From an uncultured bacterium (GTDB lineage Bacteria; Acidobacteriota; HRBIN11; JAKEFK01): a DNA stretch of 64,000 bases. Numbering within the stretch: position 1 is the stretch's first letter; every line of letters starts with the position of its first letter. Below the pieces are notes generated by a model. That model ran no database searches. It was not told where the DNA came from and saw only the letters and a program-made list of their open reading frames with translations. The translations under genes were made by a program, and so were the position numbers. The stretch lies in the NCBI GenBank assembly GCA_963777505.1, contig CAVZQN010000004.1, positions 768,001 to 832,000 of the forward strand, read 5' to 3'. Below are positions 23,470-39,553 of the stretch, one piece after another.

Positions 23470-23478
23470 GATTCACCG

Positions 23479-23494: not shown

Positions 23495-23515
23495 AGGAAA
23501 TTGGAAGGAAGTCTT

Positions 23516-24943
23516 ATGTTTAAGCGGATAGGAAGCAGGGTTCTCGCTCTATTCGTTCTGTCTGTGGCCGTGCTCGTAATTCTGCTTGGTTTTGTTTTTT
23601 ATTTCATTGGAGCTCGTTCACTTGAAAAGCAAGTTGACAGCAACTTGAAATCAACGGCAGTAGTTCTTGCGTCACAATGGGATGGCTCGATTTTGTTATT
23701 ACTAAAACCTGGAATGGAAAATGCTCCACTTTTTCAATCATTCACTCGCCGGATACTCCGGATGAAAGAGCAAGCTCAAGTTCATGCAATTTATATCGCT
23801 ACACCTGAAAGAACGCAGATTATTTCAACCGAAAGTCCGATTAGAATTGGGCAGTCCTTGCCGCGTTTGGATTTGCTGCAATCAGAAATGACAGAAGCTA
23901 TGAAGGGAAATGCAGCAGTCTCTGATCTGGTTCGTGTTGAGAATCATCAGTACAAAAGTGCGATCGCACCGGTTTATGCAGGCGATCGTATCGCAGCAGT
24001 CTTGATGGTTGATATGAGTCCATGGTACCTGGTGTACCTGAAATCATTTCGTAACTCACTCTTATTGTTTACGCTTCTTGCGCTTGCTGGAGCAGCGGTG
24101 CTTGCAAGACTCTTTTCAAGAACAATTACTGAACCCATTTCAAAAATGGTTGAACGAGTGGATGAGATCGGACGTGCACGCTATGAAGAACCTCTTGAAG
24201 TTTCAGGTGGTGATGAGTTAGGACGTTTAGCATCATCGATCGAAACAATGAGACAGAATATTCACAAACGCGATGCACAAATGCGGATGATGCTGAGCGG
24301 GGTAGCGCATGAGATTCGAAATCCTCTTGGCGGCATTGAATTGTTTGCAGGAATTCTGGAAAAGGAAAATCTTAACTCAGAACATCGTGAATATCTGCGC
24401 AAGATTCAATGGGAAATTCAACAACTTAAACGGCTGTTGAATGAATTCCTGGATTTTGCTCGTCCAAGAAATCTTCAATTCGAGAAAGTCGAGCTTTCAG
24501 GATTAATGGAAGAAATCCGAAGTCTTGTGGGAAATGATATTGAAACGCGAAGTGCGCGATGGATTGTTGATGTTCAGCCGGATGTTTCATTGATCGAAGC
24601 AGATCGGAGTAAATTGCGCCAGGCACTTTTGAATCTTTACAGAAATGCATTCCAATCAATTCCTGAAACGGGTGATGTGCAATCGCGGATCCGAAGAAAT
24701 GGTTCGGGGATTGTAATGGAAATATCTAATAGCCAGATAAAGAAACTGGATCCCGAAGTGGAAAGAAGAATTTTTGAACCGTTTTATACCACACGTGAAA
24801 AGGGGATTGGTCTCGGTCTGCCTCTGGCAAAACGCATTATTGAAGCGCATGGTGGAGAAATTCAGTTAGCGGAAAATTCAGATTCCCAGATTACGTTTGC
24901 AGTAAAGCTTCCCGGAATCAAACGCGAAAATGCAACCTGGTAA
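23516..24943 (+). CDS. HAMP-domain sensor histidine kinase
   Basis: Two TM segments, HAMP (DELGRLA), AHEIRNPL, NLYRNA, FEPFYTT, GIGLGL. Confidence 0.93.
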   Translation: MFKRIGSRVLALFVLSVAVLVILLGFVFYFIGARSLEKQVDSNLKSTAVVLASQWDGSILLLLKPGMENAPLFQSFTRRILRMKEQAQVHAIYIATPERTQIISTESPIRIGQSLPRLDLLQSEMTEAMKGNAAVSDLVRVENHQYKSAIAPVYAGDRIAAVLMVDMSPWYLVYLKSFRNSLLLFTLLALAGAAVLARLFSRTITEPISKMVERVDEIGRARYEEPLEVSGGDELGRLASSIETMRQNIHKRDAQMRMMLSGVAHEIRNPLGGIELFAGILEKENLNSEHREYLRKIQWEIQQLKRLLNEFLDFARPRNLQFEKVELSGLMEEIRSLVGNDIETRSARWIVDVQPDVSLIEADRSKLRQALLNLYRNAFQSIPETGDVQSRIRRNGSGIVMEISNSQIKKLDPEVERRIFEPFYTTREKGIGLGLPLAKRIIEAHGGEIQLAENSDSQITFAVKLPGIKRENATW

Positions 24944-24973
24944 TCTCTGCGCCTTTGTGGTGAAAGTATATCT

Positions 24974-26329
24974 ATGAGCAGAATTTGGATTATTGAAGAC
25001 GACCGAACAATACGCGAAGCCATTGAAGTCATTTTAAAAAAGGATGGCCATGCAGTTCGTGTGTTCAGGAGTGCTGAAGAAGCATTAAATGGTGTGGAGG
25101 GTGAGCCGGAACTTCTCATTTCCGATTACAAACTGCCGGGTATGAATGGCATTGAATTGATTCGGCACTTTAAATCGAAGAGTCCGGCGATGGAATCGAT
25201 TGTGATTACAGCATTCGGAAGCATCGACCTTGCTGTGGAGGCGATCAAACAAGGCGCGAGTGATTTTCTAACAAAGCCATTTTCACCTGATGAATTAATG
25301 CTGAAAGTACATCAACTTTCTACCCTGAGCAGAGTTAAAGAGCAGACACAATATCTTGAAGAAGAAATGCGCAGCGCATTTTCTGACTATGAAATCGTTG
25401 GCAACTCTGAAGAAATGAAGCGCATCTATGCGCTGCTTTCAAAAGTATCAAAGAGTGAATCAACAGTTCTTATTCAAGGTGAAAGCGGTACAGGAAAAGA
25501 GCTGATAGCCCGTTTCATTCATCATAACTCACGGCGTAATCATGGACCTTTTATTAAGGTAAATTGCGCTGCACTTGCGGAAGGCATTTTGGAAAGTGAA
25601 TTATTCGGACATGAAAAAGGCGCCTTCACGGGCTCCATCCGGCAGCGGAAAGGCCGGTTTGAGCTTGCGCATCAAGGCACTATTTTTCTTGACGAAATCG
25701 CAGACCTTGCAACCGGCGTTCAAGTGAAATTATTGCGTGTCATTCAGGAAGGTGAGTTGGAACGTGTCGGAGGTGAACAGACACTTCATGTCGATGTGCG
25801 GATCATTGCTGCAACAAACCGGAAACTTTCAGAAATGGTCCAACAATCAGAGTTTCGTGAAGATCTGTATTACAGGTTAAACGTCATACCGATTGATCTT
25901 CCACCATTACGAAAGCGAAAAAGCGATATTCCGGATCTTGTAATTTTCTTTTTGAAACGTCTGGCGCGAGATAACAAACGTACGGAAATTACGATTGAAC
26001 CTGAGGCGATGCAACTCCTTTTGGATTATCCATGGCCCGGTAATATTCGTGAATTAGAAAATGTTTTGGAACGTGCGGTTGTTCTTTGCGACAGCGACAG
26101 GATTACTGTGCATGAACTTCCATTTGTTCATGAATCATCACCTTCTTTAGCCGGCAAGCCTGTTCAATTGTTCGACGGCAATCTTGATGACCGGTTGGCT
26201 GATATGGAAAAACAATTATTGTTGAAGGCCATGCAGGATGCACATGGTGTAAAAACTCGTGCTGCAAGATCGCTTGGAATCAAGACATCGACTCTATATT
26301 ACAAGTTGGAGAAATACGGACTGATATGA
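24974..26329 (+). CDS. sigma-54-dependent response regulator (NtrC family)
   Basis: Receiver domain, GESGTGKE, ESELFGHEKGAFTGS, FLDEI, WPGNIREL, Fis-type HTH. Confidence 0.96.
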   Translation: MSRIWIIEDDRTIREAIEVILKKDGHAVRVFRSAEEALNGVEGEPELLISDYKLPGMNGIELIRHFKSKSPAMESIVITAFGSIDLAVEAIKQGASDFLTKPFSPDELMLKVHQLSTLSRVKEQTQYLEEEMRSAFSDYEIVGNSEEMKRIYALLSKVSKSESTVLIQGESGTGKELIARFIHHNSRRNHGPFIKVNCAALAEGILESELFGHEKGAFTGSIRQRKGRFELAHQGTIFLDEIADLATGVQVKLLRVIQEGELERVGGEQTLHVDVRIIAATNRKLSEMVQQSEFREDLYYRLNVIPIDLPPLRKRKSDIPDLVIFFLKRLARDNKRTEITIEPEAMQLLLDYPWPGNIRELENVLERAVVLCDSDRITVHELPFVHESSPSLAGKPVQLFDGNLDDRLADMEKQLLLKAMQDAHGVKTRAARSLGIKTSTLYYKLEKYGLI

Positions 26330-27252
26330 AACGAAGTTTTTTTGCAGCATTATTGTTAACCTATTTTATCTCGCCTGTATTTGCACAGGATTTTGAAACT
26401 CAATACAAGCAGTTGTCAGGCCTCGAAAAGCAAATCAAGGAATTGAAAGCCGAATATAACAGCGAGAAACAAAACAACGATCTTCGTTTAACAAGAATCC
26501 AGCAGGCCAAATCAAAAGGAAATTCTCAGGCGGCCGAAAGTGAGTTAAAGGATGCGTATGTCGCCGCAGAACGGCTTAACCAACTCAATGGAAAGGTAAA
26601 TCAAAAACAGCAAGAGATTGATGCGCTTTGTTCAACATGGGGAAAACTTTATGGGCCTTCTGTTGATACCCTGCTGGCAGAGGCGGAAAAGAATTCTGAT
26701 AGCAAAAAGCGCGCTGAAATTGGAGCGCGATTGCAGAAATATCAGTCTTTAAATTCACGTTTGTGTTTGAAAACTTTGAATAGTTTTTCAACCGAGTGGA
26801 AAGCCTTACAAATTGAACCTTATGATGGTCCTCAAGAAATCATGCTGAAGGTACAGCTTCTAAAGGATATTGAACGAGAAATGGCGATCGGTATTACGCG
26901 ATTTGAGGAGCAGTATCGGCAGATTACTCGTGAGCGTTTAACGCGTGAGCGCGCGCAAGAATTTGTTGATGAAGGTACGCTGTTTGATGGCGGGATTACA
27001 GTCCGATCTCAACCAAAAGGAGGGATCGATGCAGAGGGCTATGTACCACTTTCCGGCGCGCAGGATCGTGCCAGCCCGGGACCGGAAGCCGCTCCTAGCG
27101 AAGTTATGTCCGTCGGTTCTTCCTGGAACGATGTTCCAACTACAGAAGAGGACTACAAAAAGCAACGTTCCGATTTGACGAAACAACAGGAAGAACTTCG
27201 AAATAAAATCAAACAATTCGAGGAACAAGAAAAAGCACTATTAAAGCCATGA
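26326..27252 (+). CDS. exported coiled-coil hypothetical protein
   Basis: Signal peptide ending VFA-Q, heptad-rich; ATGA overlaps with both neighbours. Confidence 0.75.
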   Translation: MKRSFFAALLLTYFISPVFAQDFETQYKQLSGLEKQIKELKAEYNSEKQNNDLRLTRIQQAKSKGNSQAAESELKDAYVAAERLNQLNGKVNQKQQEIDALCSTWGKLYGPSVDTLLAEAEKNSDSKKRAEIGARLQKYQSLNSRLCLKTLNSFSTEWKALQIEPYDGPQEIMLKVQLLKDIEREMAIGITRFEEQYRQITRERLTRERAQEFVDEGTLFDGGITVRSQPKGGIDAEGYVPLSGAQDRASPGPEAAPSEVMSVGSSWNDVPTTEEDYKKQRSDLTKQQEELRNKIKQFEEQEKALLKP

Positions 27253-28341
27253 TCCGCTGGATTGTTCTGCTGTCTATCATCCTTGTGTCACCGGTAACAG
27301 CAGAAGTTCCACTCCAGGTTGAAAAACAAAAATTAAAACTGTCCCTTGAATATGAAAATTATGTCGATTTCGTCAGCAATGAAGTTCGCACGACAGGAAT
27401 AAAAGGGACATATCTTCTTAAAGCAAAAGGTCCGATCGCAGGGGATTCATACTGGACGATTGATTTACAAAGCGGAATAAAAACGAATTTTGATCGTACC
27501 TTCGTTTCAGGCAACCTTTCACCGTTAATCTGGTCGAATCGAGTCAACGTGCGGACGTTTATTCCGGCAGGTGCCTTTTTCTTTAGCGGAGGATTTTATT
27601 ATCGCAATAAATGGCTTGCAAATGCCGATGATCCTGATCTGTTTGTGGATATATTCGGCGGCGTAGGTTTCTCAGATCTCGCTGGTAATTTTCAGGCAGG
27701 ATTTACGATGTCACAAGCCTGGGACTTTGCAGTAAGCGCACATAAATCGCAGCAACGATATGATCGTTTCCAACTTTCCAATACTGATACAGAAGCAGCT
27801 TCAGCAAGACTATCGCGTAATTTTTCAAAAGTTCGTGTAGGACTTGAATATCGAGTACGTTCTATCGATTATCGGCGTCCTGTGATTCCCGATGACACAA
27901 TTGCATTCCCCGTCGATCCGACTGGTATTGAATTGCAGCACGATTCTCTGAATGAAATCGGTTTCCATGTTGAAGTCATGAAACCTTTTTATATTTCCGC
28001 CAGTTATTTTTATCAGGATAACAACTCAAACAATCCAGGTTTTAGTTATACGAACAATCGAGTGACATTGTTAGTTGGGACGCAGCTTTCTGATGATTAT
28101 CATTTTCAAGCGTATGGAATTCTTCAGAATCAAAGTTTCGCAGATCCTTCATCATTTTTTCAGGTCCCCGTTGTTACTGGATGAAAATGAAAACAATACG
28201 ATGGCTGCAAGTTTAATTCGTACTTTCACTTCTTCCAGGGAGCTAGAGCTCGGAATTCAACGGCTATCGTATAACTCTTCTTACACACTGCTGGATACTT
28301 CCAAGTACGTCCTTTACGTTGCATACAATTATCGGTTTTAA
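27249..28341 (+). CDS. outer-membrane beta-barrel protein, frameshifted near 28155-28169
   Basis: Signal peptide, amphipathic strands; removing one base joins it to ORF 28075-28341 ending YVAYNYRF (beta-signal). Confidence 0.7.
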
Positions 28342-28396: not shown

Positions 28397-28407
28397 TTCT
28401 TTTGTTC

Positions 28408-29502
28408 ATGAAAAGTTCAGACATTGCACATTTACGCCTTAGAAACCTGCATCTTACTGAACCCACATTCAAAAAAGCGGCAGATGTTGTTCGATGGTTA
28501 GGGGCCGTACAGTCACAGGATTTTGCGTCAGCAAAATTTGGCGTCGCCGTTCGCATGAAAAATGCAGTCGATCGAGACATTGAAGATGCATTTAACAAAG
28601 GAGAAATTTTAAGAACTCATGTGATGCGTCCAACATGGCACTTTGTGATGCCTGAAGATATTCGCTGGATGCTTGAGCTGACAGCCCCACGTGTGAAATC
28701 GATTCTCTCTTCATATGATCGTGGATTAGAACTCACTGAAAAGGTTCTTTCCCGCTGCAGTGAAATTTTCATACGTCTTTTGAAAGGCGGTAAGAATTTA
28801 ACAAGAACTGAGCTGGCCGAACACCTTGAAAAAAACAAGATCCTTGCACGCGGTCAGCGACTCGCCCGTATTGTAATGCATGCAGAACTGAATGCTGTAC
28901 TTTGTAGTGGACCTCGAAAAGGCAAACAGTTAAGTTATGCACTTTTGGATGAGCGTGTGCCTCAGAAAACGAAAAAGTTGAATCGTGAAGAAGCTCTTGC
29001 AAAATTGATGCTCAAATATTTTGCAAGTCATGGCCCGGCTCAATCAAAAGATTTTTACTGGTGGTCCGGACTTTCAGCGAAGGATGTCACACAAGGACTT
29101 GAAATCGTCAAATCAAAATTAGTGCGCGAAGAGATAGATGGCAAAACATACTGGATGACGAATGATGCGAAAGTTCATTCTGAAACGCTCGCAATAAAAC
29201 ACCAGGCATTCTTCTTATCCATTTATGACGAATATACGATTGCGTATAAAGACAGGAGTGCGCTTGGCGACGGGCGATATGCCGAAAAGTTTCTATCGAT
29301 GGGAAATGCCCTGACGTCAGTCATTATTCTCAACGGCAAACTTGAAGGCACATGGAAGAAAGCATTGAAGAAAAGTGGCGTTGAAATTCGAGCTGATGTT
29401 TTTAGAAAATTGAACAAGAGCGAACAACAAGCGCTGAAGAAAGCTGCCGAACGTTATGGTCAGTTTCTGGAACTGCCGGTTGAATTACTAGTTCATCAAT
29501 AA
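28408..29502 (+). CDS. AlkZ-like DNA glycosylase (HTH_42 winged-helix family)
   Basis: VQSQD (QxQ motif), RTHVMRPTWH, HGPA..KDF.WWSG, YDEY. Confidence 0.88.
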   Translation: MKSSDIAHLRLRNLHLTEPTFKKAADVVRWLGAVQSQDFASAKFGVAVRMKNAVDRDIEDAFNKGEILRTHVMRPTWHFVMPEDIRWMLELTAPRVKSILSSYDRGLELTEKVLSRCSEIFIRLLKGGKNLTRTELAEHLEKNKILARGQRLARIVMHAELNAVLCSGPRKGKQLSYALLDERVPQKTKKLNREEALAKLMLKYFASHGPAQSKDFYWWSGLSAKDVTQGLEIVKSKLVREEIDGKTYWMTNDAKVHSETLAIKHQAFFLSIYDEYTIAYKDRSALGDGRYAEKFLSMGNALTSVIILNGKLEGTWKKALKKSGVEIRADVFRKLNKSEQQALKKAAERYGQFLELPVELLVHQ

Positions 29503-29536
29503 GGGGTGATGCGACTACGCGTGTCTTCGATGGAAT

Positions 29537-29791
29537 TTAGGCGTATTTTGCTACTGGTATGGAACGCTTTGGTGCAAGACGGCGATGAGATTTGATTCGC
29601 TCAAGTTCATGCAGTGTCTCTGAAGTAAGATAACTGGCCCCGCAATGTGGACAGCTGATAACTGGGACGTTTTCAATCAGCAAAAGGTCATTCCCTCTTC
29701 CGTAAGTTCGAGTAACATAAATGAGCCTAGATCCTGACTTACCGCAAACGTCACATTGGAGCGTTGATGGATGCTGGGCTTTACGCTTCAT
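29537..29791 (-). CDS. YgiT-type zinc finger protein (MqsA-like putative antitoxin)
   Basis: CDVCG...IENVP...CPHCGASY. Confidence 0.85.
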   Translation of the reverse strand: MKRKAQHPSTLQCDVCGKSGSRLIYVTRTYGRGNDLLLIENVPVISCPHCGASYLTSETLHELERIKSHRRLAPKRSIPVAKYA

Positions 29792-30062
29792 ATATTGTGA
29801 TAATAACCAACTTCCCAGTTGTACTCAACTTCACGACGACTCCAAGAATCTGTTTATTGAGAGCCTCACCTTCAACAACGTATTTAAGCTCTCCCGTATC
29901 AGCGTCAGTCTGACGCTCGATGATGGCGCCAGTAAGAATCGCTGCTTCTACATCAAAGATTGTAAACTCATCAAAGTTCATTTCTTCTTCAGCATGAATT
30001 GTCATAACGTAGCTGCCATTTCGGATATTATGACGGATTCGATTAAGGATGCGCGGATACAC
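29781..30062 (-). CDS. DUF4258 protein (putative RelE-fold toxin)
   Basis: TIHA.EEM, G.IIE, C-terminal LVIITIY; overlaps the YgiT-type gene. Confidence 0.85.
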   Translation of the reverse strand: MYPRILNRIRHNIRNGSYVMTIHAEEEMNFDEFTIFDVEAAILTGAIIERQTDADTGELKYVVEGEALNKQILGVVVKLSTTGKLVIITIYEA

Positions 30063-30215
30063 GAAAAATATTGTATCTTATGTGATGAAGTCGGCGGTGA
30101 ACGAAGGAGTTGGGCAGGCACAGCGACTTTTCTTCGCTACGTCTCAGAGACTTCCGAGATTCCACATGTCAGTTTTTCCTGCCGATTACGTTGATCATCT
30201 GATCGCTATCTTGGC

Positions 30216-31352
30216 TTAACGGATCCATACGTCTGAAAATACGCGCAGGAGATTACGACCGAGAATCTTTTCGATACGAGCTCCTGTGTGACCACGGCTG
30301 GATAGCATGGATGCGAGTGTTTCGAGACGGCGTGGTGTGTTGAGTTCATTTGCGAAGAGGTATCCGTCTTCGGTTTCGTTTGGCGCAGCGATGCCGGCTT
30401 CACGTCGCGCGCGAGTGTTTTCCGCAAAGTTCTTGCGGAATGCGTCGTCAACGATTTCGGGTGAAATGCCGCCGTCGGTGCCAATCGATACGTGGTCTTC
30501 ACCCGCCACTTTGATCGCATGTTCCAGGTGAGCAATGACGTTTTCAGCGGTTGGCTGCTTTCCATTGTTCAGATAAGGCATGATGTAAATTCCCGCGACG
30601 CCGCCTTTTTCGGCGACTGTGCGTAACTCTTCATCGGTACGATGGCGTGGATGATCCGCCAGTGCAGCGCAGCCTGTGTGTGTGAAAGCAACAGGACGAG
30701 TTGAAGTCTTGATGGCGTCAGCAGCGGTGCGTCGTCCGCAATGGCTAAGATCCACAAGGATCCCGATTTCGTTCATGCGTGCAATCGCTTCAAATCCAGC
30801 TCGGCTCAACCCGGCATCGGCTGGTTCCATACATCCATCACCCAGAAGGTTACGCCGGTTGTATGTCGGTTGAATGATTCGTATTCCGAGTTTGTGAAAG
30901 TCGTTTAATAGCGAGAGATCGCTTTCGAAAGCAACACCATCTTGAAAACCATAGATTAAGCCGGTTTGTTTTGTCTTCTTAGCGGCAAGAATGTCTGTGG
31001 CTTTCCGTATGCGCGTGAGTACTTGCGGAACGCGGTCGATCTGTGATTCCCAATAGATAATTTCACGCACCGCTTGCACAAAGGCACTCTCCGGTGGTGT
31101 CGTACCAACCGGGAGGATTGTTATATTCACTGCAGCTAATCCTGACTGGCGTATATGCTCCACATCCGTTTCGGAAAGCGGAACACTGTTTTCTCTAGCG
31201 CTGTTTCCGGGTGACCCAAGGCCATCGATCACAATAGCAAGGTCGTATCCAATCCAATCGGCAGCAGATGCGAACTTCATCGGCAGAAGACCTGCAAGTG
31301 TCCAGACTGCCGCATTCGTCAAAAATGTTCGCCGTGTAATTTGCCCTATCAT
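30216..31352 (-). CDS. Tat-exported membrane dipeptidase (M19)
   Basis: TRRTFL twin-arginine signal; DLSHCG, THTG, HPRHRTD, IGTDG. Confidence 0.88.
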   Translation of the reverse strand: MIGQITRRTFLTNAAVWTLAGLLPMKFASAADWIGYDLAIVIDGLGSPGNSARENSVPLSETDVEHIRQSGLAAVNITILPVGTTPPESAFVQAVREIIYWESQIDRVPQVLTRIRKATDILAAKKTKQTGLIYGFQDGVAFESDLSLLNDFHKLGIRIIQPTYNRRNLLGDGCMEPADAGLSRAGFEAIARMNEIGILVDLSHCGRRTAADAIKTSTRPVAFTHTGCAALADHPRHRTDEELRTVAEKGGVAGIYIMPYLNNGKQPTAENVIAHLEHAIKVAGEDHVSIGTDGGISPEIVDDAFRKNFAENTRARREAGIAAPNETEDGYLFANELNTPRRLETLASMLSSRGHTGARIEKILGRNLLRVFSDVWIR

Positions 31353-31371
31353 AAGACACGAAATACCTATC

Positions 31372-31836
31372 CTATTTACCAGCTTGTGCGCCAGACATAC
31401 CTGTAATGATCTGCCAGGTCTCACCTCTACGTTGCCATGTATGTGTAATTCTATATTCGTCAAGTTGCCTTACTACCTCATTAGTACTAGCCGATCGGTA
31501 AAAGTCACGCACAAGATAATGGACAACAACAACGTCACCAAACGACCGTACAGCTTTTGGAGTCAATTCATAGTCATATCGTTCCGCTGGATCCTTGTGT
31601 AACGGGGCAATCCATTCGCCGATGTTCGCTTTCTCAACTGGCGTCATGCTAAAACCTGGCCAACCAATGAACCGCTCATCCCAAAGAGTCCGGTAACCTT
31701 TGATGTCGTTGTTCTTAACATATTTCCAATAAGCTTCTTCGAGGCCCCAAACCGCTTTTTCATCGGAAGCGCTATCAGGCCATAGCGAAGCCGAGAAAAA
31801 TAAGACTATTACGAAAGTTAGAAATAGTTTGCGCAT
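31372..31836 (-). CDS. secreted NTF2-like (DUF4440/SnoaL) protein
   Basis: Signal peptide; FGDVVVVHY, RITHTW....WQIITG. Confidence 0.82.
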   Translation of the reverse strand: MRKLFLTFVIVLFFSASLWPDSASDEKAVWGLEEAYWKYVKNNDIKGYRTLWDERFIGWPGFSMTPVEKANIGEWIAPLHKDPAERYDYELTPKAVRSFGDVVVVHYLVRDFYRSASTNEVVRQLDEYRITHTWQRRGETWQIITGMSGAQAGK

Positions 31837-31865
31837 AGTGTCCCCCATTAGATTTGTATCAAAAT

Positions 31866-32795
31866 TCAGGTGTTCTTGATTGACTTCCAATTCCTCAGTC
31901 GCTCTGCGAGCAATTCCGCACGCCGCTGGTCATCTACGCCATCCAGAGTTTGCATGTCAATTGGATCAGCGCGCAAATAGATACCCGATGTGCGCGCGTT
32001 CAATTTTGGGCGATTCTCTGATCGCGTTGTCCAGTATCCTGATGCTCGATCCGCGGATTCCATCCGGATCTCTCCGATGCCTTCCAACTGTGGCGCATTC
32101 GGGTCCATTGGCCGTTCGCCCTTCCAATAATAGAAGACGCCTGACAACTCCTTTTTCTCCTTAACCGCTTCACTCCAGTATCTGGCTGACAGACTTCCAT
32201 TCTCTTGCCAGGAGCGACCGGTCACCTCTAAAGCACCGTCGCGGTTGCGCGAAATCCGCAAGAGGCTTACAGCAGAAGGTTCCGTCGCGGTGCGCTCTGT
32301 GAGCGAATACTGCCACCACAGTCCTTCGATGCGGGAGAGGCGTCCTGAATCCTCGATCGCCTTCCGAATTTTTTGGTTAACCACTTTTATTTCTGCTGCG
32401 GTCGTTGCTTCGTCGTACCGCACACATGTAAGACCAAGAAGATCGCTTGGAAGCTTAGCGCCTTTCGCATGAAGGATAAAAGTGCGGCGCATTCCGAGGA
32501 TTCCTCCAAAAAGGCCGGCTTCAAAGACAACATTGTCTCGCGGAGAGGCTTGACCAGATTCTGGCGGAGGCAAAGCCGTTGTGTTCACGCTCGTCCAGTC
32601 GTCGCGGGCAAACACAAATGCCGCGAAGTCGACATCATACGCAATCTCGAGAAGCCGCTCCAACGTAGTTGTCCCTGGATTGAATGATGTTGTCCAGGGT
32701 TGAACGTGCGCGACGTCTTCAAGGCCGCGTGTCAGTGCATTCAACAATTTCTCTTGCTTTCCTGACGATCCTAGAAAGATGCGTGGTTTATCCAT
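31866..32795 (-). CDS. CAP12/Pycsar-type TIR domain protein with C-terminal beta-rich domain
   Basis: RIFLGSS, DFAAFVFARDD, PRDNVVFEAGLF (catalytic Glu), LPSDLLG. Confidence 0.88.
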   Translation of the reverse strand: MDKPRIFLGSSGKQEKLLNALTRGLEDVAHVQPWTTSFNPGTTTLERLLEIAYDVDFAAFVFARDDWTSVNTTALPPPESGQASPRDNVVFEAGLFGGILGMRRTFILHAKGAKLPSDLLGLTCVRYDEATTAAEIKVVNQKIRKAIEDSGRLSRIEGLWWQYSLTERTATEPSAVSLLRISRNRDGALEVTGRSWQENGSLSARYWSEAVKEKKELSGVFYYWKGERPMDPNAPQLEGIGEIRMESADRASGYWTTRSENRPKLNARTSGIYLRADPIDMQTLDGVDDQRRAELLAERLRNWKSIKNT

Positions 32796-32821
32796 CCGTC
32801 CTCCAAATTGCAGATCGGCTT

Positions 32822-33451
32822 TTATTTAGGCAGCACTCCTGGGGCAGCCCCAGCGCTAGAAGCCTTTTCTTTTCTCTCCATATCGGCGACCAGATCTTTG
32901 GCACCCGCGCCCCATCGGGAGATGGTTCGGAGAGCCTCAGTGAAAGGGATGTCCAGAGGATGCACCCGCCTCCCTTCGATGACATAGACTGTACCTGCAA
33001 GCGGCGTTGGTATCGATGGCACAAAGATCGTGTAACGTCCATCTTCAAACTCCTCAATGATGAATGCGGGGAGAAGACCCTCGTCACCTTCGAATAACGC
33101 CGGTCTCCAAATGTTTTCACGGCTCTCCCCAGCGATCTGCTGTGTGAGACTCCGAAAGAGTGCATAACCCGGGATTCTTTCAAAGAATCTTTTTTCCACC
33201 TTATCACGAACTCTTTTGCCTGTTCGAGTGCGGACGGCGACGCCAACGAGGAAGCATATCAAAAGCACGAAAAGCAGGGACAATGCTGACTCAGCAGGTA
33301 TCCAGTCTGGCAACATCGCGGCGATCGGACGCACAAGGCCCACGATGGATTTCATTCCCTTGAGCAGTAAAAGTACGGCAAGGTAGAGCGGTACAACAAT
33401 GAGCAAGCCGGAAAATAGCGCTCGTACAATGAACACTAGTGCTTTTTTCAT
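32822..33451 (-). CDS. DUF502 membrane protein
   Basis: GLLIVVP, two TM segments, ERIPGY, FVPSIPTPLAG. Confidence 0.88.
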   Translation of the reverse strand: MKKALVFIVRALFSGLLIVVPLYLAVLLLLKGMKSIVGLVRPIAAMLPDWIPAESALSLLFVLLICFLVGVAVRTRTGKRVRDKVEKRFFERIPGYALFRSLTQQIAGESRENIWRPALFEGDEGLLPAFIIEEFEDGRYTIFVPSIPTPLAGTVYVIEGRRVHPLDIPFTEALRTISRWGAGAKDLVADMERKEKASSAGAAPGVLPK

Positions 33452-33533
33452 AACGGCAACTTCCTCCGTTCTTGATTAAACATTACACAATAAAGCAATG
33501 ATGTGATACCACCTGCGGGTCATTCACCCGCAC

Positions 33534-35285
33534 CTACATTTTTAGTTTCACCTTAATCAGGCCGCGAATCGCATTGCTCACATAAACCTGATCTGCGTTT
33601 TGTACATCGTCCAGAGTCAAAGTTTTTTCGTGAGCATCCCAATTTCCTGATTCAAGCACATATCGCCTGTATGTTCCAGCAAGCAATCCTGATTGCACAG
33701 GTGGTGTATAAAACTTTCCGTTTCTTTCAACAAAAATATTTGAAATGGCTCCTTCAGTAATTTCATCGCGCTCATTCATAAATATGACATCGAAGTGTCC
33801 TTCACTTTTTGCATGCGCATGTTCTTTTTCGTAGAGCGTTCTTGCAGTTGTTTTGTGATATAAAAATCGATCGTTAGAATCCATTCGGTGTTGCGACAAA
33901 GTTACAGTGCATGGCTCATTCAATCGCATGATGTCTTCGGTTTCAATGTGCGCGTCTCCTGATTCATGCAAGATTAACCGCACTCGCGCGTGGCTATGCT
34001 GTGTTCCTATTCCATTCAGCGCGGCTTCGATTGCATCGCGATCAAATTTGAAAAGAAAATATTGTGCGGATCGTTCCAAACGTTCTAAATGAAACTTTAA
34101 GTGACGATATCCTTTTTCAGATTCCCACAAAATCGTTTCAAAGAGGCTGAATTGTGGTTTGGCTTCAGTGAGAAATTGTGCTTTCAACTTGCACTCTTCA
34201 TACTCACGAGTTGCATCGGCTTCGTATAAGATCCCGCTGCCAACTCCCATTTCGAGTTGTCCGGAGACACGATCCAAAGCTATTGTACGGATCGCAACAT
34301 TAAAGACACACTGAGTTGCTGACCACCAGCCGATTGTACCTGTGTAGATACCACGCGGTACTTGTTCGAGTTCATGGATAATTTGCATTGTTCTCAGTTT
34401 TGGCGCGCCCGTTACTGAACCAGATGGAAAAGTCGCCTCAAGGATCCTCGCTACATCTGTTTGTGAGTTGAGTGTTCCTCTCACAGTGGAGGTCATTTGC
34501 AGCAATGTTTCATATTGTTCGATCTCCATAGGCGCAGCAACATGAACGCTGCCGGATTCGCAAATTTTTCCCAGATCGTTACGCAGCAAATCAACAATCA
34601 TAAGATTTTCACTTTGTTCTTTAATGCTGTTGCGCAACGTAGAAGCATTTTCGGCATCTTCTTCAAGAGTTTTCCCGCGGGCTGATGTTCCTTTCATCGG
34701 ACGCATTTCGATTTGTGTTCCATCTTTTCGGAAAAATAGTTCAGGGGAAAAAGAAAGAGCCGCCCATTCCGGCGTTTCAATTAAAGCTGCATAGTTAACT
34801 CGTTGTTGTTGACGCAACCATGCATAGAGATCGCGCGGAGTTCCATCATAAGCTCCGGTATAACGCAGTGTGTAGTTGACTTGATACGTATCGCCCCGCG
34901 CTATGTGAGATTTAATCCTTTGAAGAGCGTCATTATAAGAACTTAGATTTTCATTTAAATGCAGATTGAGGATTTCAGGCTGGCTTTCATTGCCAAAAAA
35001 GCTATGTGGCAACTCGGTTTCAAAATTCTTCGACAATGCAAACCAGAGAAGCGGCAGGCTTGGTTTTCGGGGCTCAGGCAAATTCGGTAAGAATACATAC
35101 CCAGCTTCATAACTTAAGAAACCAAATGCAGTCCAACCTTGCCTGGTATGTTCCTCGATTTCTTTCAGCAGGTATTTGATCTCATCAGGATTATTTGACT
35201 GCACAATTTTCTCGGGTTCACGTACCAGAAAGGTTTGTCTTTCTTGTAAATTCGGACGAAGCGATTCGAGGAGCACAAGAGTCAT
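33534..35285 (-). CDS. pabB: aminodeoxychorismate synthase component I fused to ADC lyase domain
   Basis: GDTYQVNYT, SPELF, PMKGT, ENLMIVDLLRND, PSGSVTGAPK; class-IV domain HKTT.R, EGAISNIF, GLLAGT.R. Confidence 0.93.
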   Translation of the reverse strand: MTLVLLESLRPNLQERQTFLVREPEKIVQSNNPDEIKYLLKEIEEHTRQGWTAFGFLSYEAGYVFLPNLPEPRKPSLPLLWFALSKNFETELPHSFFGNESQPEILNLHLNENLSSYNDALQRIKSHIARGDTYQVNYTLRYTGAYDGTPRDLYAWLRQQQRVNYAALIETPEWAALSFSPELFFRKDGTQIEMRPMKGTSARGKTLEEDAENASTLRNSIKEQSENLMIVDLLRNDLGKICESGSVHVAAPMEIEQYETLLQMTSTVRGTLNSQTDVARILEATFPSGSVTGAPKLRTMQIIHELEQVPRGIYTGTIGWWSATQCVFNVAIRTIALDRVSGQLEMGVGSGILYEADATREYEECKLKAQFLTEAKPQFSLFETILWESEKGYRHLKFHLERLERSAQYFLFKFDRDAIEAALNGIGTQHSHARVRLILHESGDAHIETEDIMRLNEPCTVTLSQHRMDSNDRFLYHKTTARTLYEKEHAHAKSEGHFDVIFMNERDEITEGAISNIFVERNGKFYTPPVQSGLLAGTYRRYVLESGNWDAHEKTLTLDDVQNADQVYVSNAIRGLIKVKLKM

Positions 35286-35375
35286 AACAACATTTTAACG
35301 CGTAGTTCAATCAGAAACCTGACGAGATATGCGAAATTCTGAAGAAGTGATCGCAGTCAATCGAGGACAGAGACA

Positions 35376-35391
35376 TGGCAAGCCTCTTGCT
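35376..35391 (+). promoter_or_regulatory. sigma-54 promoter
   Basis: TGGCAAGCCTCTTGCT (GG-N10-GC) upstream of RBS GGAGG and ATG 35438. Confidence 0.7.
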
Positions 35392-35437
35392 GAGGAACAT
35401 AGGCGTGGTTAAGAAGCTAATCACGGAGGGTTTTCGA

Positions 35438-36079
35438 ATGAAGAACATCTTAGTTCTTGCCTTTGTTTTGTTAGTGTCCTTAATTTCGGCTGTTTCTGTG
35501 CAAGCCGAAACAGAAATTTTGATTCATTCCGGATGGTCTTTCGCAAATGCTGAGATGGATTCTGTTCCGTGCATTTTTTGCCGTGATCCTATAATTGTTC
35601 CTCCTTTCACCTTCACAACCGAAGCCGGCAACAGTCCTGTATTCGGCTTCAAGGTTGCGTATTTTCTGAATAACCGGGCGGGCATCGAAGGGGGATTTTC
35701 TATCGCCCCGAATCATACCGTAACCACTTCAAATGTTTTTGAATGCCCGCCCGGTATGATATGTCCATTGGCGCTTTTTCCTTTCTTTCTAAGCGAACAC
35801 AACATGGTTACCTATCAATACGATGCAAATTTTGTCTACAACATACTCACCGGTGATGTGCAGCCGTATATCACAATCGGTGTGGGTGGAATTTCTTCCG
35901 ATCTTGAAACGGATGTGCGAAGTGATTTCGTTTTGAATTATGGTGGCGGCGCCAAATTTTGGTTTAACAAATTTGGATTACGCTTTGAATTAAATGATCA
36001 TGTCATTCCGAACTATTTCCTTACTGAGGAAACAGAACACAACATTCAAGTTCAGTACGGTTTTCTATTCAAGCTTTGA
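35438..36079 (+). CDS. small outer-membrane beta-barrel protein
   Basis: Signal peptide VQA-E, QPYITIGVG, NYGGGAK, LRFELND; Cys pairs in loops. Confidence 0.85.
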   Translation: MKNILVLAFVLLVSLISAVSVQAETEILIHSGWSFANAEMDSVPCIFCRDPIIVPPFTFTTEAGNSPVFGFKVAYFLNNRAGIEGGFSIAPNHTVTTSNVFECPPGMICPLALFPFFLSEHNMVTYQYDANFVYNILTGDVQPYITIGVGGISSDLETDVRSDFVLNYGGGAKFWFNKFGLRFELNDHVIPNYFLTEETEHNIQVQYGFLFKL

Positions 36080-36104
36080 GTCTTTGCGGTAAAAGAAATC
36101 CTTA

Positions 36105-36968
36105 TTAGTCGGATTGAAACATGGAATTCTTTTTTGCGCTAAACGAGCTGAAAGAGATTGCTGTTGGGCCATTCGCGCCGCCTTGAGCGTAAATTCCGAC
36201 TTTACCTTTATGATCCGTAGCATCGACAAATTGGAGGAGAAGCTCATCGTCCAGATAGGCACTCACTAAATCGTCTTCAGTTTTGAGAGCTAATTGATAT
36301 TTAACGTTCTTACGGATTTCTTTTGTTTTTGGAAGTTTTAAGAATCCTGTGAGATCGTACCAGGTCCCGCTTGCATAACCCTGAACGAGATAATTATTCT
36401 TCCCACCAATCATAAACACGTGGAAATTATCTACGCTTGCCGCGCAACAAATAATACCGAAGAGAACATCTTGTTCACCTTCTTTCCATTCAATCGTGCC
36501 TTCAATCGTTGAATTGTCTGAAGCGACGGTATCGTAAATTACAGCATAAAAACTTTTATCGGGTGGGAGAAGTTCCAGGGTGTTGTCTACATATCTCGCT
36601 TTGTTACCAAAGAGTTGTATGTCCTTTTCTATTTGGGGATGAGGCTTTCGAAACGTATCGCGAACAAATACACCTGGCGGAAAGAAATAAAAATATGCTA
36701 CTGCGCCGCCAATTCCGAGCACCAATAAGAATGCGGCAGCTAAAGCGACAATAATTTTTGCTGATCCGCTTTTCGATGGAACTTGAATATTTGGAATACC
36801 ACCGGGTGACAGAGGACCCGAATAAGGTTGATGAGCCGGTTGTTGAGGAAGCGGCTGAGGTGGAGGATCTGGTGGTCTTGGATGAGTTCGATCGACCTGT
36901 TCACGTCCACATGAAATACAAAATCGCGAACCCGGATTGATTGGTTGACTACAATGAATGCAATTCAT
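36105..36968 (-). CDS. zinc-ribbon / Pro-rich / TM / extracytoplasmic beta-sandwich protein
   Basis: CxxC...FCxxCG N terminus, Pro-rich linker, one TM, DUF1080-like C terminus (GKVGIYA). Confidence 0.75.
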   Translation of the reverse strand: MNCIHCSQPINPGSRFCISCGREQVDRTHPRPPDPPPQPLPQQPAHQPYSGPLSPGGIPNIQVPSKSGSAKIIVALAAAFLLVLGIGGAVAYFYFFPPGVFVRDTFRKPHPQIEKDIQLFGNKARYVDNTLELLPPDKSFYAVIYDTVASDNSTIEGTIEWKEGEQDVLFGIICCAASVDNFHVFMIGGKNNYLVQGYASGTWYDLTGFLKLPKTKEIRKNVKYQLALKTEDDLVSAYLDDELLLQFVDATDHKGKVGIYAQGGANGPTAISFSSFSAKKNSMFQSD

Positions 36969-37084
36969 TAGATGAAATCTTAACCGATTGGAAGTAAACC
37001 TCCAAGGAGCCGGGACATATCAAAATTCTGAGGATTATCAACTTTTAGTAGGGTCTATTTTCATGCTTCTCGACGATGAAATGA

Positions 37085-37100
37085 TGGCAAATTGCTTGCA
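37085..37100 (+). promoter_or_regulatory. sigma-54 promoter
   Basis: TGGCAAATTGCTTGCA (GG-N10-GC) about 40 bp upstream of ATG 37140. Confidence 0.65.
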
Positions 37101-37139
37101 AGTGCAAGATTCATCATGAAAAAGGACTATGCAATCAGG

Positions 37140-37544
37140 ATGAGAAAATTGATTTGGTTTTTATTAGGTTCACTTGTCATTTTGCTTCTTGGATGTTCAT
37201 CTGAAAATCCAGCTTTGAATGTGCCTCCGGATGGTCAATATTTTACGGTCCAGGCTGGAAACGATACGTTCGTTATGTTTGTGACCGATGAAGCTTCAAT
37301 CCGTCTTGCTACGGAAAATTTTCAGAGAAAAAACAAAATGTTCCCTTCAGGGCGCATTGAAACAGGACATGGCGGATACAACTGGCCATGGAATTGGCAT
37401 TTTATTCCGCAAAGTGTCCGCATGGTTGAAGTTTCGATTGAAGTTTGTGATGGTGCGCCAAGTTATGTTGAGAAACATGTGAATGATTTTGTGGCGGTGG
37501 GTTACTGCCCTTGGAATGCGAGAGTAATTAAGATCGGTCGTTAG
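37140..37544 (+). CDS. BP74-related lipoprotein
   Basis: Lipobox LLGC; YN.PW.WH, IEVCDG.PSYVE, YCPW. Confidence 0.8.
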   Translation: MRKLIWFLLGSLVILLLGCSSENPALNVPPDGQYFTVQAGNDTFVMFVTDEASIRLATENFQRKNKMFPSGRIETGHGGYNWPWNWHFIPQSVRMVEVSIEVCDGAPSYVEKHVNDFVAVGYCPWNARVIKIGR

Positions 37545-37582
37545 TTTTCATTCCGTCAATAGAACTAGGTCCCCCCTAGATG

Positions 37583-37618
37583 GGCCTCCTGACTGGACGC
37601 AGGAGGCCTTTTTCTTTT
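37583..37618 (+). terminator. rho-independent terminator between convergent genes
   Basis: GGCCTCCTG...CAGGAGGCC followed by TTTTTCTTTT. Confidence 0.8.
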
Positions 37619-37626
37619 AGTCCAGT

Positions 37627-37887
37627 TTATTTTGCCAGCCGGCTGAGTCTTGCTTTATGACGTGCCGCAGCATTCTTATGCAAAACACCTTTCTTCACTG
37701 CCTTGTCGATGATCGAATAAGTTTCTGGTAATGACTTTGCGGCTCCGGCTTTATCACCCGATGCTCCAATCGAACGCACCTTTTTCAGTTGCGATTTCAA
37801 TCGCGTCTTATTGGCCTTGTTCCGAGCCTGTGCTTTCTTCGACTGTCGTAAACGTTTCTTCGTTGATAGTGAACTTGCTTTACCCAT
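37627..37887 (-). CDS. rpsT: 30S ribosomal protein S20
   Basis: KKRLRQS..., IDKAVKKGVLHKNAAARHKARL; located after holA. Confidence 0.95.
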   Translation of the reverse strand: MGKASSLSTKKRLRQSKKAQARNKANKTRLKSQLKKVRSIGASGDKAGAAKSLPETYSIIDKAVKKGVLHKNAAARHKARLSRLAK

Positions 37888-37969
37888 TTTTACTCCACTT
37901 GAAATTGTTATTAATTCTTGGCGTCATGGCGCCTTGGCGGTTGAGTTCGGAAAAACGGTTAATTTATCA

Positions 37970-39010
37970 TTATTGGAGCGGAACGTCAAAGATAGGCTGC
38001 GGAGGGAGTTTCAGGTTACAAAGCTGAATTGTCATCAATTGTAGAACAGTCTCATCCTTCGCCTGGCTTGTTTTTAGTGCTTTGTCGGCTGTCGATAAAA
38101 TAGCAACCGCCTTTACGAGATCCTGGATCGTGTAACGCGAAAGCTGATTTAGATACCCTCTCAAATAATAAACAGGTTTTCCGATTTTCTTTGAAATTGT
38201 TGCTTCAGGTACTTTTTGCTGAACCATCTCTTTAGTCAAAATCATCTTCTCGTATTGCTTCCCTAGAATCGCTACGCATTTGATTGGCTCTTCGCCGTTT
38301 TCAAGAAGATCATTTAGATATTGAATTGCCGGTTCGGCATTTTGATCCAGAATCGCTTCGGTCCACTGCCAAACCGTGGCAATCGGAGAATGGCCAACCA
38401 TGATTGCAACATCCTCTTCCTTGATCCTTTTTTCCGCACTTCGCAACAACATTAGCTTTTCAAGCTCTCCTGCAATTCTTTGCAAATCATTTCCCGTGCG
38501 TTCTATGAGGGCTTGAGCTGCACCAGAATCGATTTGAAAATTTAAAGTCCGCAAATGACTGTTGATCCAGCTTGGCAATTCCTTTTCGCTTAAAGGAGTA
38601 AATTCCACAATTGTCGTTTTTTTCTCAAGAATTGCTTTCAACTTCGAACGTCCTTCCCATTGATTAACATCAAAGATGAGGAGAGTATTTGGGGATGGAG
38701 AATCGAGATAACGTTCAAGATAGTCCTTCACTTTATTCAATGACTTATCCAGCGCTGCTGCGCCTTTAATATGGACAATCTTCCAATCCGAAAACATTGG
38801 AAGGGTGCTGGCGTCTTCAAGAAATGTGTTGTCCTTCAACTCATCACCTGTGAAGGAACGGTAGTTATATTGTTTCGAATCGGCATCCATGAAGCGTGCC
38901 AACACAGCATCCATAGCGCGATCCTTTAGAAATACTTCCTCACCGAGAAGTGTAATAACTGGAGGAATATTTTTACTTTGTACGGCTTTCAAAAATTCTG
39001 AATATTTCAC
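37970..39010 (-). CDS. holA: DNA polymerase III delta subunit
   Basis: LLGEEVFL, TLPMFS, GNDL..IAGELEKL, AD.ALKTS; leuS-lptE-holA synteny. Confidence 0.92.
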   Translation of the reverse strand: MKYSEFLKAVQSKNIPPVITLLGEEVFLKDRAMDAVLARFMDADSKQYNYRSFTGDELKDNTFLEDASTLPMFSDWKIVHIKGAAALDKSLNKVKDYLERYLDSPSPNTLLIFDVNQWEGRSKLKAILEKKTTIVEFTPLSEKELPSWINSHLRTLNFQIDSGAAQALIERTGNDLQRIAGELEKLMLLRSAEKRIKEEDVAIMVGHSPIATVWQWTEAILDQNAEPAIQYLNDLLENGEEPIKCVAILGKQYEKMILTKEMVQQKVPEATISKKIGKPVYYLRGYLNQLSRYTIQDLVKAVAILSTADKALKTSQAKDETVLQLMTIQLCNLKLPPQPIFDVPLQ

Positions 39011-39025
39011 TTTGAGTCTTTGCGG

Positions 39026-39541
39026 TTAGAATCCTTCTAAGATGGCGCTGACTATTGACTCCGCAAAATCCCGCGCGATTTCATCTATGGCTTGTGATTG
39101 TCTATCGAAGAATGCAAGTTCACTTTGATCAATTTCGTATTGTCCACGAAATACAAAGCCTGGATTTTGAAAAAGGATCTTTTTTTGAACTTCATCACTA
39201 AACGTAACCTTTGCGGAAATAATAACGTTGTACTCTCTTGCGCGGCCATCCGGATTAAATACAACCGGGACAAGCGATAAGGAATTAATTGTTCCTTTTA
39301 AAACGGCATCTACGTTTTGAGCTTCTGGTTTCACTTCGTACTTTCCGCGTTGAATTAAGACTGTAATCACGCTGCCTGTAATTTTTTGTTCGACTTCATA
39401 TCCTTGAGTGTTGTTCACAAAAATTGGAACACCAATCGTATGAATATGTTCAGGAAGGCTGGTACCGGTTCCAGCCAGATGATAACCACAGCCGTTGAAT
39501 AAAAGAGGCAACAAAATAACCAGGAATAAAATTCTTTTCAT
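39026..39541 (-). CDS. lptE: LPS assembly lipoprotein LptE
   Basis: Lipobox NGCGYHL; position between leuS and holA. Confidence 0.88.
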   Translation of the reverse strand: MKRILFLVILLPLLFNGCGYHLAGTGTSLPEHIHTIGVPIFVNNTQGYEVEQKITGSVITVLIQRGKYEVKPEAQNVDAVLKGTINSLSLVPVVFNPDGRAREYNVIISAKVTFSDEVQKKILFQNPGFVFRGQYEIDQSELAFFDRQSQAIDEIARDFAESIVSAILEGF

Positions 39542-39553
39542 ATCACCCTAATT

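Follow-up and report, generated by a model that had tools for sequence, protein, structure and literature searches.

A stand-alone bacterial gene joining a CAP12/Pycsar-type TIR domain to a barrel predicted to be Cap15-like in fold

The DNA considered here is a 64,000-nucleotide stretch, hereafter the window, from an uncultured bacterium of the phylum Acidobacteriota (GenBank assembly GCA_963777505.1, contig CAVZQN010000004.1, positions 768,001 to 832,000 of the forward strand); its subject is a single gene that encodes an N-terminal TIR domain followed by a small C-terminal beta-barrel, and which is here called the TIR-barrel gene. The TIR part is of a known kind; for the putative sensor, its fusion to such a TIR domain and the lack of a signal-making partner, no description was found in the full texts searched, preprint supplements lying outside the coverage of that search. 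A TIR domain and a Cap15-like barrel are thereby combined in one protein without a signal-making partner, yet the family comprises at least 8000 clusters and is conserved in the manner of a core gene.

The TIR-barrel gene and its domains

The TIR-barrel gene and its upstream neighbour, which encodes a DUF502-like membrane protein, are arranged head to tail on the minus strand and are separated by 26 nt (32796-32821; Table 1). The list of open reading frames (ORFs) places both genes, and the gap between them, where the original prediction had placed them, and its description of the upstream gene as a DUF502 membrane gene agrees with a Pfam match of the 209-aa protein to DUF502, although at 22.3 bits (E 1.2e-4) the match falls under the curated cut-off of 23.8. 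A scan for promoters and terminators over 30000-35600 returned counts not above those of shuffled sequence, and none between the TIR-barrel and DUF502 genes. The TIR-barrel ORF is a genuine gene, because a word-indexed homologue search returned at least 8000 clusters at E <= 0.001 and because non-synonymous divergence (dN) among homologues is far below synonymous divergence (dS).

Table 1. Coordinates of the TIR-barrel gene, its parts and its surroundings in the window
Feature	Position	Strand	Basis or remark
TIR-barrel gene, whole ORF	31866..32795	minus	309 aa + stop, ATG start; ORF list
TIR domain, residues 1-130, CAP12/Pycsar type	32406..32795	minus	PF10137, PADLOC and PDB sequence matches
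Codon of E92, putative catalytic Glu in NVVFEAG motif	32520..32522	minus	aligned to Cap12 chains, invariant
Linker helix, residues 131-156	32328..32405	minus	helix 133-153 in full-length model
Eight-stranded up-and-down beta-barrel, residues 157-276, putative ligand sensor	31968..32327	minus	AlphaFold2 model, VIA-align
C-terminal helical hairpin, residues 277-309	31869..31967	minus	helices 122-129 and 133-151 of domain model
DUF502-like membrane protein gene	32822..33451	minus	209 aa; upstream neighbour, not a system component
Variable islet between blocks syntenic with G001	28402..33451		about 5 kb, AlkZ to DUF502

A CAP12/Pycsar-type TIR domain with an intact catalytic glutamate had been proposed for the N-terminal part of the protein, and this assignment was upheld. 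Pfam PF10137 (CAP12-PCTIR_TIR) covers residues 5-128 with an E value of 2.6e-23 and 82.7 bits (cut-off 24.7), spanning profile positions 1-118 of 119. The TIR effector models of PADLOC for CBASS and Pycsar match the same part of the protein with E values down to 6.6e-33, the PycTIR model doing so at 1.2e-22. Sequence matches in the PDB were obtained to Cap12 TIR-STING (9lmq, E 8.8e-17; 7un8, E 4e-14) and to PycTIR (8jsj, E 6.3e-9); all are confined to the TIR part, ending at about residue 130, and align the NVVFE(A/F)G motif. E92 of this motif is unchanged in 77 of 77 aligned family sequences, in which 40 of the 130 positions of the TIR domain are invariant. The NCBIfam Cap12 equivalogs NF050172 and NF050171 reached 81 and 46.3 bits against cut-offs of 450, over residues 3-147 only. 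By analogy with these effectors, the TIR domain would be an NAD+ hydrolase with E92 as its catalytic residue.

The C-terminal motifs quoted by the original prediction are present in the translation, in a beta-rich domain of about 150 aa that follows the TIR domain. An AlphaFold2 model of this domain, for which the input was an alignment of 23 close and distant relatives of the barrel (A2), has a pLDDT of 93.4 and a pTM of 0.87, and consists of eight consecutive strands and then two helices. The original prediction had likened the domain to the cyclic-dinucleotide-binding barrel of Cap15 and proposed structure prediction with a structural search as the check; the outcome was a compact, eight-stranded, Cap15-like barrel. 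In an exhaustive comparison with 48,161 PDB representatives by VIA-align, three designed eight-stranded barrels led (Z 12.0, 11.8 and 10.8), and Cap15 (7n34) was the top natural chain, with a Z of 10.8, a root-mean-square deviation (rmsd) of 2.4 Å over 95/108 residues and 15% identity. Cap15 was again the top natural chain in a second VIA-align run, in which streptavidin came next (Z 9.5) and most of the list consisted of streptavidin or avidin chains (Z 8.7-9.5). Foldseek ranked 7n34 second among 350,542 chains (E 1.3e-2, TM 0.65 on the target), with streptavidins and lipocalins in the ranks below it; no match in this set reached E <= 0.001.

Conservation extends from the TIR domain into the barrel. 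In the 77 aligned sequences the mean frequency of the top residue is 0.87 for the TIR domain, 0.82 for the barrel and 0.77 for the linker, and 24 positions of the barrel are invariant, including W160, W161, Q162, W196 and Y222; the helical hairpin has no invariant position. W224 and R275 are invariant in an alignment of 27 rows that includes divergent relatives.

The relation of the barrel to Cap15 was also examined at the level of sequence. The Pfam family of the Cap15 receptor, PF18153 (Cap15_CD_rec), had no match to the barrel, and its only row for P0208, a distant relative described below, was a chance one (E <= 10). An hhalign comparison of the barrel with one Cap15 fragment was not significant. 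A language-model atlas returned Cap15_CD_rec clusters at ranks 6 (0.86) and 22 (0.80), which are leads only. Over six frames of the window's own genome PF18153 had no match, 14 control genomes being equally without one, and among 401 genomes of one class sample it found a single, apparently degraded match (L102, G172:C14), a 118-aa barrel fragment without membrane helices that is preceded by a 168-aa ORF. A tblastn search with this copy retrieved 15 plasmid records with Cap15-type genes, from which 11 regions were inspected; an annotated nucleotidyltransferase lies near the Cap15-type gene in eight of the 11, directly upstream in seven, and two further genes, both from Streptomyces, follow an unnamed gene of equal size and position. 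On the Shewanella baltica plasmid NC_017577.1, the gene after the Cap15-type one is annotated as a diadenylate cyclase and a 222-aa gene comes next, an order which resembles the paired CBASS and PanDA arrangement in passages of the PanDA preprint (10.64898/2026.08.10.743972).

Family, distant relatives and neighbouring genes

Of the best 120 homologues, almost every one has 309 aa and an identity of 79-100%. The loci compared here are the best 80 of 182 relative-encoding stretches, one genome being taken per species; they are 68-84% identical in protein and carry nine phylum labels (Acidobacteriota, Pseudomonadota, Gemmatimonadota, Actinomycetota, Myxococcota, Chloroflexota, Planctomycetota, Nitrospirota and Minisyncoccota); the Minisyncoccota label belongs to a binned contig of only 2.2 kb and may result from faulty binning. 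In 76 pairs with the window copy, the median protein identity was 0.76, dN 0.16 and dS 1.6, dS not being computable for the most distant pairs; 65 of the 309 positions are invariant in 77 sequences. The GC content at third codon positions tracks that of the host, with values of 0.71-0.95 among the rows listed. The gene is under strong purifying selection and, since dS is saturated, the spread of the family is not recent.

In a quick tree, the window copy falls into a clade of 12 rows (support 99) together with ten Acidobacteriota rows. The tree requires 20 changes of phylum label, a value that lies between the minimum of 8 and the average of 41.6 for shuffled labels and so points to vertical runs combined with transfers. 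The window copy is 75% identical to that of G001, a genome of the same genus, and up to 84% identical to copies from other phylum labels. The distribution is patchy; the barrel was found in four of 401 genomes sampled from the window's phylum.

A search with the barrel over 1.84 billion representatives gave 381 clusters at E <= 0.001, and most of the matches inspected were fragments or frameshifted pieces of the one family. Among the 50%-identity representatives, many appeared frameshifted in alignment A1 (for example P0189, P0210, P0214, P0149, P0160, P0173, P0188 and P0218) and were excluded from later alignments, and P0230, a 1177-aa CshA-repeat adhesin, was rejected as a spurious repeat match. 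A "near" search with A2 yielded mainly truncated copies of the same family, of 157-284 aa, and a homologue search with alignment A4 yielded four proteins of rarer architectures.

The genuine distant relatives are 32-40% identical in the barrel and fall into three architectures: a PF10137 TIR domain followed by the barrel (P0228, P0257, P0269); a TIR_2 domain (PF13676), a single hydrophobic segment and the barrel (P0205, P0258); and two hydrophobic segments followed by the barrel, which is the layout of Cap15 and is rare (P0208, of 221 aa; P0392, P0393, L114). For the last of these, a metagenome scan gave a sole locus, a contig of 1495 bases with a 73%-identical copy of P0208, in which a cupin-like ORF lies downstream and no cyclase is visible. 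In the TIR_2 relatives (P0205, P0258 and also P0206), the hydrophobic segment between TIR domain and barrel is preceded by basic residues, and a first cysteine is found about 10 residues ahead of the barrel, a second in the turn after strand 2; these features suggest a receptor-like topology, with the TIR domain inside the cell and the barrel outside. Such fusion of one small domain to three kinds of effector is what a sensor or regulatory module would be expected to show.

The gene had originally been described as paired with DUF502, and the survey of neighbourhoods spoke against such a pairing. Relatives of the window's DUF502, DUF4440, M19 peptidase and PabB genes were found within 6 kb at none of the 80 loci (tblastn, E <= 1e-3), and a Pfam scan of 150 of the 154 immediate neighbours, four having been left out for size, identified no CD-NTase, cyclase or DUF502 gene among the 150. 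In G001, the homologues of the TIR-barrel protein (75%) and of the DUF502 protein (66%) are encoded about 151 kb apart; in G002, a genome of the same family, the TIR-barrel gene is present (78%) and no DUF502 match was found. The adjacency seen in the window is best read as shared arrival or chance. The upstream neighbour is on the same strand at 29 of 75 loci and the downstream neighbour at 34 of 79, and both are on the opposite strand at 28 of 74. The TIR-barrel gene thus has no conserved partner gene and at many loci forms a transcription unit of its own. Defence-like neighbours are few, namely a SIR2-TIR_2 protein (L031), a STAND NTPase (L020) and a PIN domain protein (L036). At two loci (L062 and L076) the gene order is one common within the lineage, with NrdR upstream and GATase downstream.

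The absence of a CD-NTase or PycC gene from the window, also part of the original prediction, was confirmed and extended to the genome: the SMODS family (PF18144) has no match in the whole of the window's own genome (5.23 Mb, 95.9% complete), and none of the four matches to class III cyclases (PF00211) in that genome falls inside the window; the nearest is about 3.7 kb beyond the end of the window, and one of the four is in an open frame of only 212 aa. SMODS was present in one of three other isolate carrier genomes (G042), on a different contig from the TIR-barrel gene, and a diadenylate cyclase (DAC) domain in three of five carriers, the Luteimonas and Mesorhizobium genomes being those in which it was not found. 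A CD-NTase signal acting in trans, which the original prediction had allowed for, is therefore unlikely as a general rule, and on these counts neither a CD-NTase product nor c-di-AMP would be the general ligand of the family.

A gene for a non-heme chloroperoxidase-like esterase recurs among the neighbours, no more than 6 kb from the TIR-barrel gene, at 12 of the 80 loci (L001, L002, L004, L012, L013, L019, L027, L043, L050, L055, L058 and L063), as well as at L098 (in G001) and L118 (in G566). The esterases are 54-91% identical, have 1zoi and 1a88 as their best relatives in the PDB (E 1e-130), and are encoded in at least three arrangements relative to the TIR-barrel gene: co-directional and 13-40 nt downstream, co-directional and upstream, and upstream in the opposite orientation. 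The esterase is the only recurrent neighbour that is spread over the tree, is absent from the window, and may be a former or optional partner.

A gene for nicotinamide phosphoribosyltransferase (NAMPT), an enzyme of NAD salvage which would recycle the nicotinamide freed by an NADase, is near the TIR-barrel gene at five of the 80 loci; it is directly downstream and convergent in L035, L054, L064 and L078, and about 3 kb away in L011. Four copies form a close group with mutual identities of 88-100%, and the fifth stands at 54%. In the Steroidobacteraceae locus L031, the SIR2_2 plus TIR_2 gene (7055-8434) directly follows the TIR-barrel gene and is co-directional with it.

Proposed mechanism and rival explanations

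A predicted homodimer of the TIR-barrel protein scored 0.59, the best of three controls reaching 0.26. This mark was attained by 20 of 30 solved same-chain pairs and by one of 23 solved single chains (own alignment; the counts are only rough). The homodimer runs agree in at least 72% of contacts, with a partner pLDDT of at least 77, and the predicted interface is a symmetric TIR-TIR contact formed by residues 44-52, 65-71, 84-102 and 114-122, including the E92 helix. Since Cap12 TIR assemblies have been solved (7un8, 9lmq), this result may reflect recall of a known arrangement.

We give an even chance to the reading that the protein is a TIR NADase complete in itself and gated by a ligand which no neighbouring gene supplies, and that its role is most likely a defence of the abortive-infection type. 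The N-terminal TIR domain would hydrolyse NAD+ by means of E92, a long helix would join it to the barrel, and the barrel with its hairpin would be a regulatory, ligand-binding module with the fold of the Cap15 receptor. The ligand would probably be a small nucleotide-like molecule, either widespread in bacteria or appearing or disappearing in infection or stress; since no ligand maker is linked to the gene and a near-identical protein is encoded in Aeromicrobium and Mesorhizobium, it should be universal or infection-borne. A change in ligand occupancy would promote assembly through TIR-TIR contacts around the E92 helix, and assembly would lead to NAD+ breakdown and growth arrest. The analysis itself establishes the TIR family and its catalytic motif, a confidently predicted barrel fold, the occurrence of the barrel with other effector parts, the want of a conserved partner gene and strong purifying selection; ligand binding, ligand-driven assembly, NADase activity and an immune role are each proposed by analogy with characterised systems, namely TIR-STING, TIR-SAVED and Cap15. 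If the barrel does bind a ligand, the identity of that ligand would reveal a new immune signal or the monitoring of a universal metabolite.

To our knowledge, the sensors so far found on Cap12/Pycsar-type TIR NADases are STING, SAVED or cyclic-nucleotide-binding domains, and these proteins are always encoded beside a signal-making enzyme. Cap15-type barrels are known as sensors on two membrane helices and, recently, also on a PNP domain; the sensor of PycTIR is a cyclic-nucleotide-binding domain. The window protein resembles Cap12 TIR-STING (7un8, 9lmq) in having an N-terminal PF10137 TIR domain, a C-terminal sensor, a similar length (309 aa against 312-331) and an aligned catalytic motif, but its sensor is a barrel with a hairpin in place of STING, and the window family has no adjacent CD-NTase. 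With PycTIR (8jsj) it shares a TIR domain of the PF10137 family, but PycTIR has the reverse order, sensor first and TIR domain last (the match being to chain residues 154-281), and a cyclase is adjacent. The window gene itself has neither a CD-NTase nor a Pycsar cyclase next to it, the hallmark of CBASS and Pycsar. Cap15, OptE and PanE (S-2TM-beta, PF18153, 7n34) likewise have a small eight-stranded barrel with a helix after the last strand, and one rare relative of the window barrel carries two N-terminal hydrophobic helices as they do; in contrast, no sequence or profile match connects the two barrels, and the window protein has a TIR enzyme where the S-2TM-beta proteins have two N-terminal transmembrane helices (2TM) that disrupt membranes. 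Whereas the plasmid-borne Cap15-type genes mostly have a nucleotide synthase nearby (eight of 11), no such gene is adjacent to those of the window family.

The Panoptes paper (PMC12657218) speaks of a 2TM element "obligately fused" to its barrel, and a Cas13b preprint places 2TM-beta genes beside TIR domains without fusion to them. The barrel-PNP fusions of PanDA, as portrayed in part of the preprint that describes them (10.64898/2026.08.10.743972), are alike in that a Cap15-type barrel governs a soluble, nucleotide-depleting enzyme instead of a 2TM element; they differ in that the enzyme is PNP and not TIR, in being encoded in operons with a minimal diadenylate cyclase, and in having recognisable S-2TM-beta barrels. 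TIR-SAVED proteins of CBASS and type III CRISPR, according to an extract of PMC11229360, parallel the mechanism proposed here, in which ligand-driven assembly would unite TIR domains into an active NADase, but they have a Rossmann-like SAVED sensor, a ligand supplied by an adjacent cyclase and a TIR domain of a different family.

A bolder form of the proposal, which we advance tentatively and consider rather more doubtful, holds that the protein is a cyclase-independent, single-gene TIR switch whose Cap15-like barrel senses the presence or the loss of a molecule shared by very different bacteria; it would then represent an unrecognised immune or dormancy class widespread in soil bacteria, and the first TIR enzyme under a barrel of this kind. 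Identities of 68-84% over nine phylum labels would, on this proposal, be read as the mark of a constrained partner chemistry. Candidate ligands include a 2',3'-cyclic-phosphate product of RNA cleavage and a housekeeping nucleotide that is removed by phage sponges. Passages of PMC13692257 indicate that such barrels can read RNA fragments with 2',3'-cyclic phosphates, and passages of two other sources describe barrels held off by a constitutive nucleotide, which phage sponge proteins remove (PMC12657218; 10.64898/2026.08.10.743972). By analogy, either logic could work for the TIR-barrel gene without a dedicated cyclase.

A number of observations weigh against an immune NADase under a Cap15-type barrel, and they bear on alternatives to it. 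The immediate neighbours are a mixture of metabolic, transport and regulatory genes, which is atypical of a defence context; conservation of this degree across phyla is unusual in immune genes; the barrel search returned no match in 72,556 plasmid records and none in 50,697 phage records, and a search of IMG/VR viral contigs with the whole protein gave three pattern matches, none of which was confirmed. The chiefly metabolic neighbours and the empty plasmid, phage and viral collections would suit a metabolite-gated NAD+ or nucleotide hydrolase that serves the soil bacteria's own physiology, in NAD turnover, dormancy or as a stress switch, and so would purifying selection over the full length (with saturated dS and 65 invariant positions), NAMPT adjacent or within about 3 kb at five of 80 loci, the esterase recurring at 12 and the lineage-shared gene order with NrdR and GATase at two. 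We nevertheless judge a non-immune function unlikely. All characterised PF10137 TIR domains that we know of are immune effectors, with which the names of the PDB entries agree; the gene is patchy even within the window's phylum (four of 401 genomes), the tree holds 20 label changes where 8 would suffice, the same-genus copy is less similar than copies under other labels (75% against up to 84%), and the islet around the window copy is variable and carries toxin-antitoxin-like genes.

The remaining contrary points concern the barrel. Its modelled fold is compact and eight-stranded like that of 7n34, a likeness that two outer-membrane barrels share to within 1 Z (3dzm, Z 10.3; 4rlc, Z 10.0) with an rmsd of 3.2-3.5 Å, and small eight-stranded barrels may arise independently. 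Residues 157-309 have no match in Pfam, PADLOC or NCBIfam (in the first two, even at E <= 10), and a PDB profile search with the barrel found nothing at E <= 10. The alignment of A2 with A3, an alignment of 12 Cap15-type proteins, by hhalign was not significant, at E 0.072 and a probability of 0.78 over 27 columns, both profiles being shallow (Neff 3.1 and 3.9); the aligned stretch comprises strands 6-7 and includes, on strand 7, a G-x-Y-x-T-x-R pattern common to both families. The Cap15-like barrel of the original prediction thus stands as to its fold, 7n34 being the top natural match, and falls short as to sequence homology, with PF18153 silent and hhalign at the value given; going by the model, we call the domain Cap15-like in fold only, and common descent with Cap15 is a possibility. 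In the TIR_2 relatives a barrel outside the membrane would fit poorly with a cytoplasmic nucleotide ligand. The full-length monomer model, finally, is moderate (pLDDT 75.9, pTM 0.54, loop 68-85 disordered), so that any placement of the barrel relative to the TIR domain is tentative. An explanation in keeping with the undetectable sequence homology, the probably external barrel of the TIR_2 relatives and the streptavidin, avidin and lipocalin chains in the structural lists is that the barrel is no nucleotide sensor at all: its binding partner might be a protein, a peptide, or a hydrophobic or cofactor-like compound, as in avidins and lipocalins, or it might be a mere scaffold for assembly, with a phage protein, for example, as trigger. 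The pockets of avidins are rich in Trp and Tyr, as are the invariant positions of the barrel. Set against this are the rank of Cap15 as top natural structural match with the lowest rmsd, the Cap15 layout of the 2TM-barrel relative, the strand 7 pattern in common with Cap15 (not significant, as said) and the extreme conservation across phyla, which suits a universal small ligand more than fast-evolving phage proteins; we think such a barrel improbable. Still less probable, in our view, is the account first given for this gene, that of an orphan CBASS or Pycsar effector responding to a cyclic nucleotide from a cyclase elsewhere in the genome. Its TIR domain is of the right effector type and its barrel has a Cap15-like fold, and the four class III cyclase matches in its own genome (one in the 212-aa frame) and the SMODS gene on another contig of G042 would be conceivable sources; but SMODS was not found in its own genome, at 95.9% completeness, or in two of the three other carriers, none of the 150 immediate neighbours is a cyclase, the NCBIfam Cap12 equivalogs score 81 and 46 bits against 450, and a family conserved to this degree under nine phylum labels would call for a trans-acting cyclase conserved to match, of which none was seen.

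The variable islet and other genes of the window

The TIR-barrel gene of the window is part of an islet (Table 1) whose cargo comprises AlkZ, a toxin-antitoxin-like pair (DUF4258/zinc-ribbon), an M19 peptidase, DUF4440, the TIR-barrel gene and DUF502. On either side of it, 21688-28184 and 33534-41992 are collinear with a contig of G001, and none of the six genes in between matches there; the counterpart in G001 (L123 5708-12847, 7.1 kb) holds a kinase-TPR protein, an M55 peptidase, an AbiEi/AbiEii pair and a YebC fragment. The GC content of the M19, TIR-barrel and DUF502 genes is 0.51-0.53, against 0.42-0.44 in the flanking genes. An outer-membrane-protein-like gene at 35375-36079 likewise has no match in that stretch of G001.

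Within the islet, the two minus-strand ORFs at 29537-30062 encode a DUF4258 protein (93 aa, E 9.2e-12) and then an 84-aa protein whose zinc-ribbon/YokU-like matches are weak (E 0.004-0.01), overlap by 11 nt and, from their sequences, look like a toxin-antitoxin pair. The M19 dipeptidase (30216-31463, minus) has a twin-arginine-like N-terminal leader (RRTFL...). In the DUF4440 ORF (31372-31890, minus), an internal Met precedes a hydrophobic leader; counted from the TTG given as its start, the ORF shares 25 nt with the end of the TIR-barrel gene, so its real start is probably further downstream. Beyond the islet, at 33534-35285 on the minus strand, lies the gene for a 583-aa fusion of a chorismate-binding, PabB-like part with a class IV aminotransferase, PabC-like part, which is kept in G001 (65% identity) and in G002 (53%).

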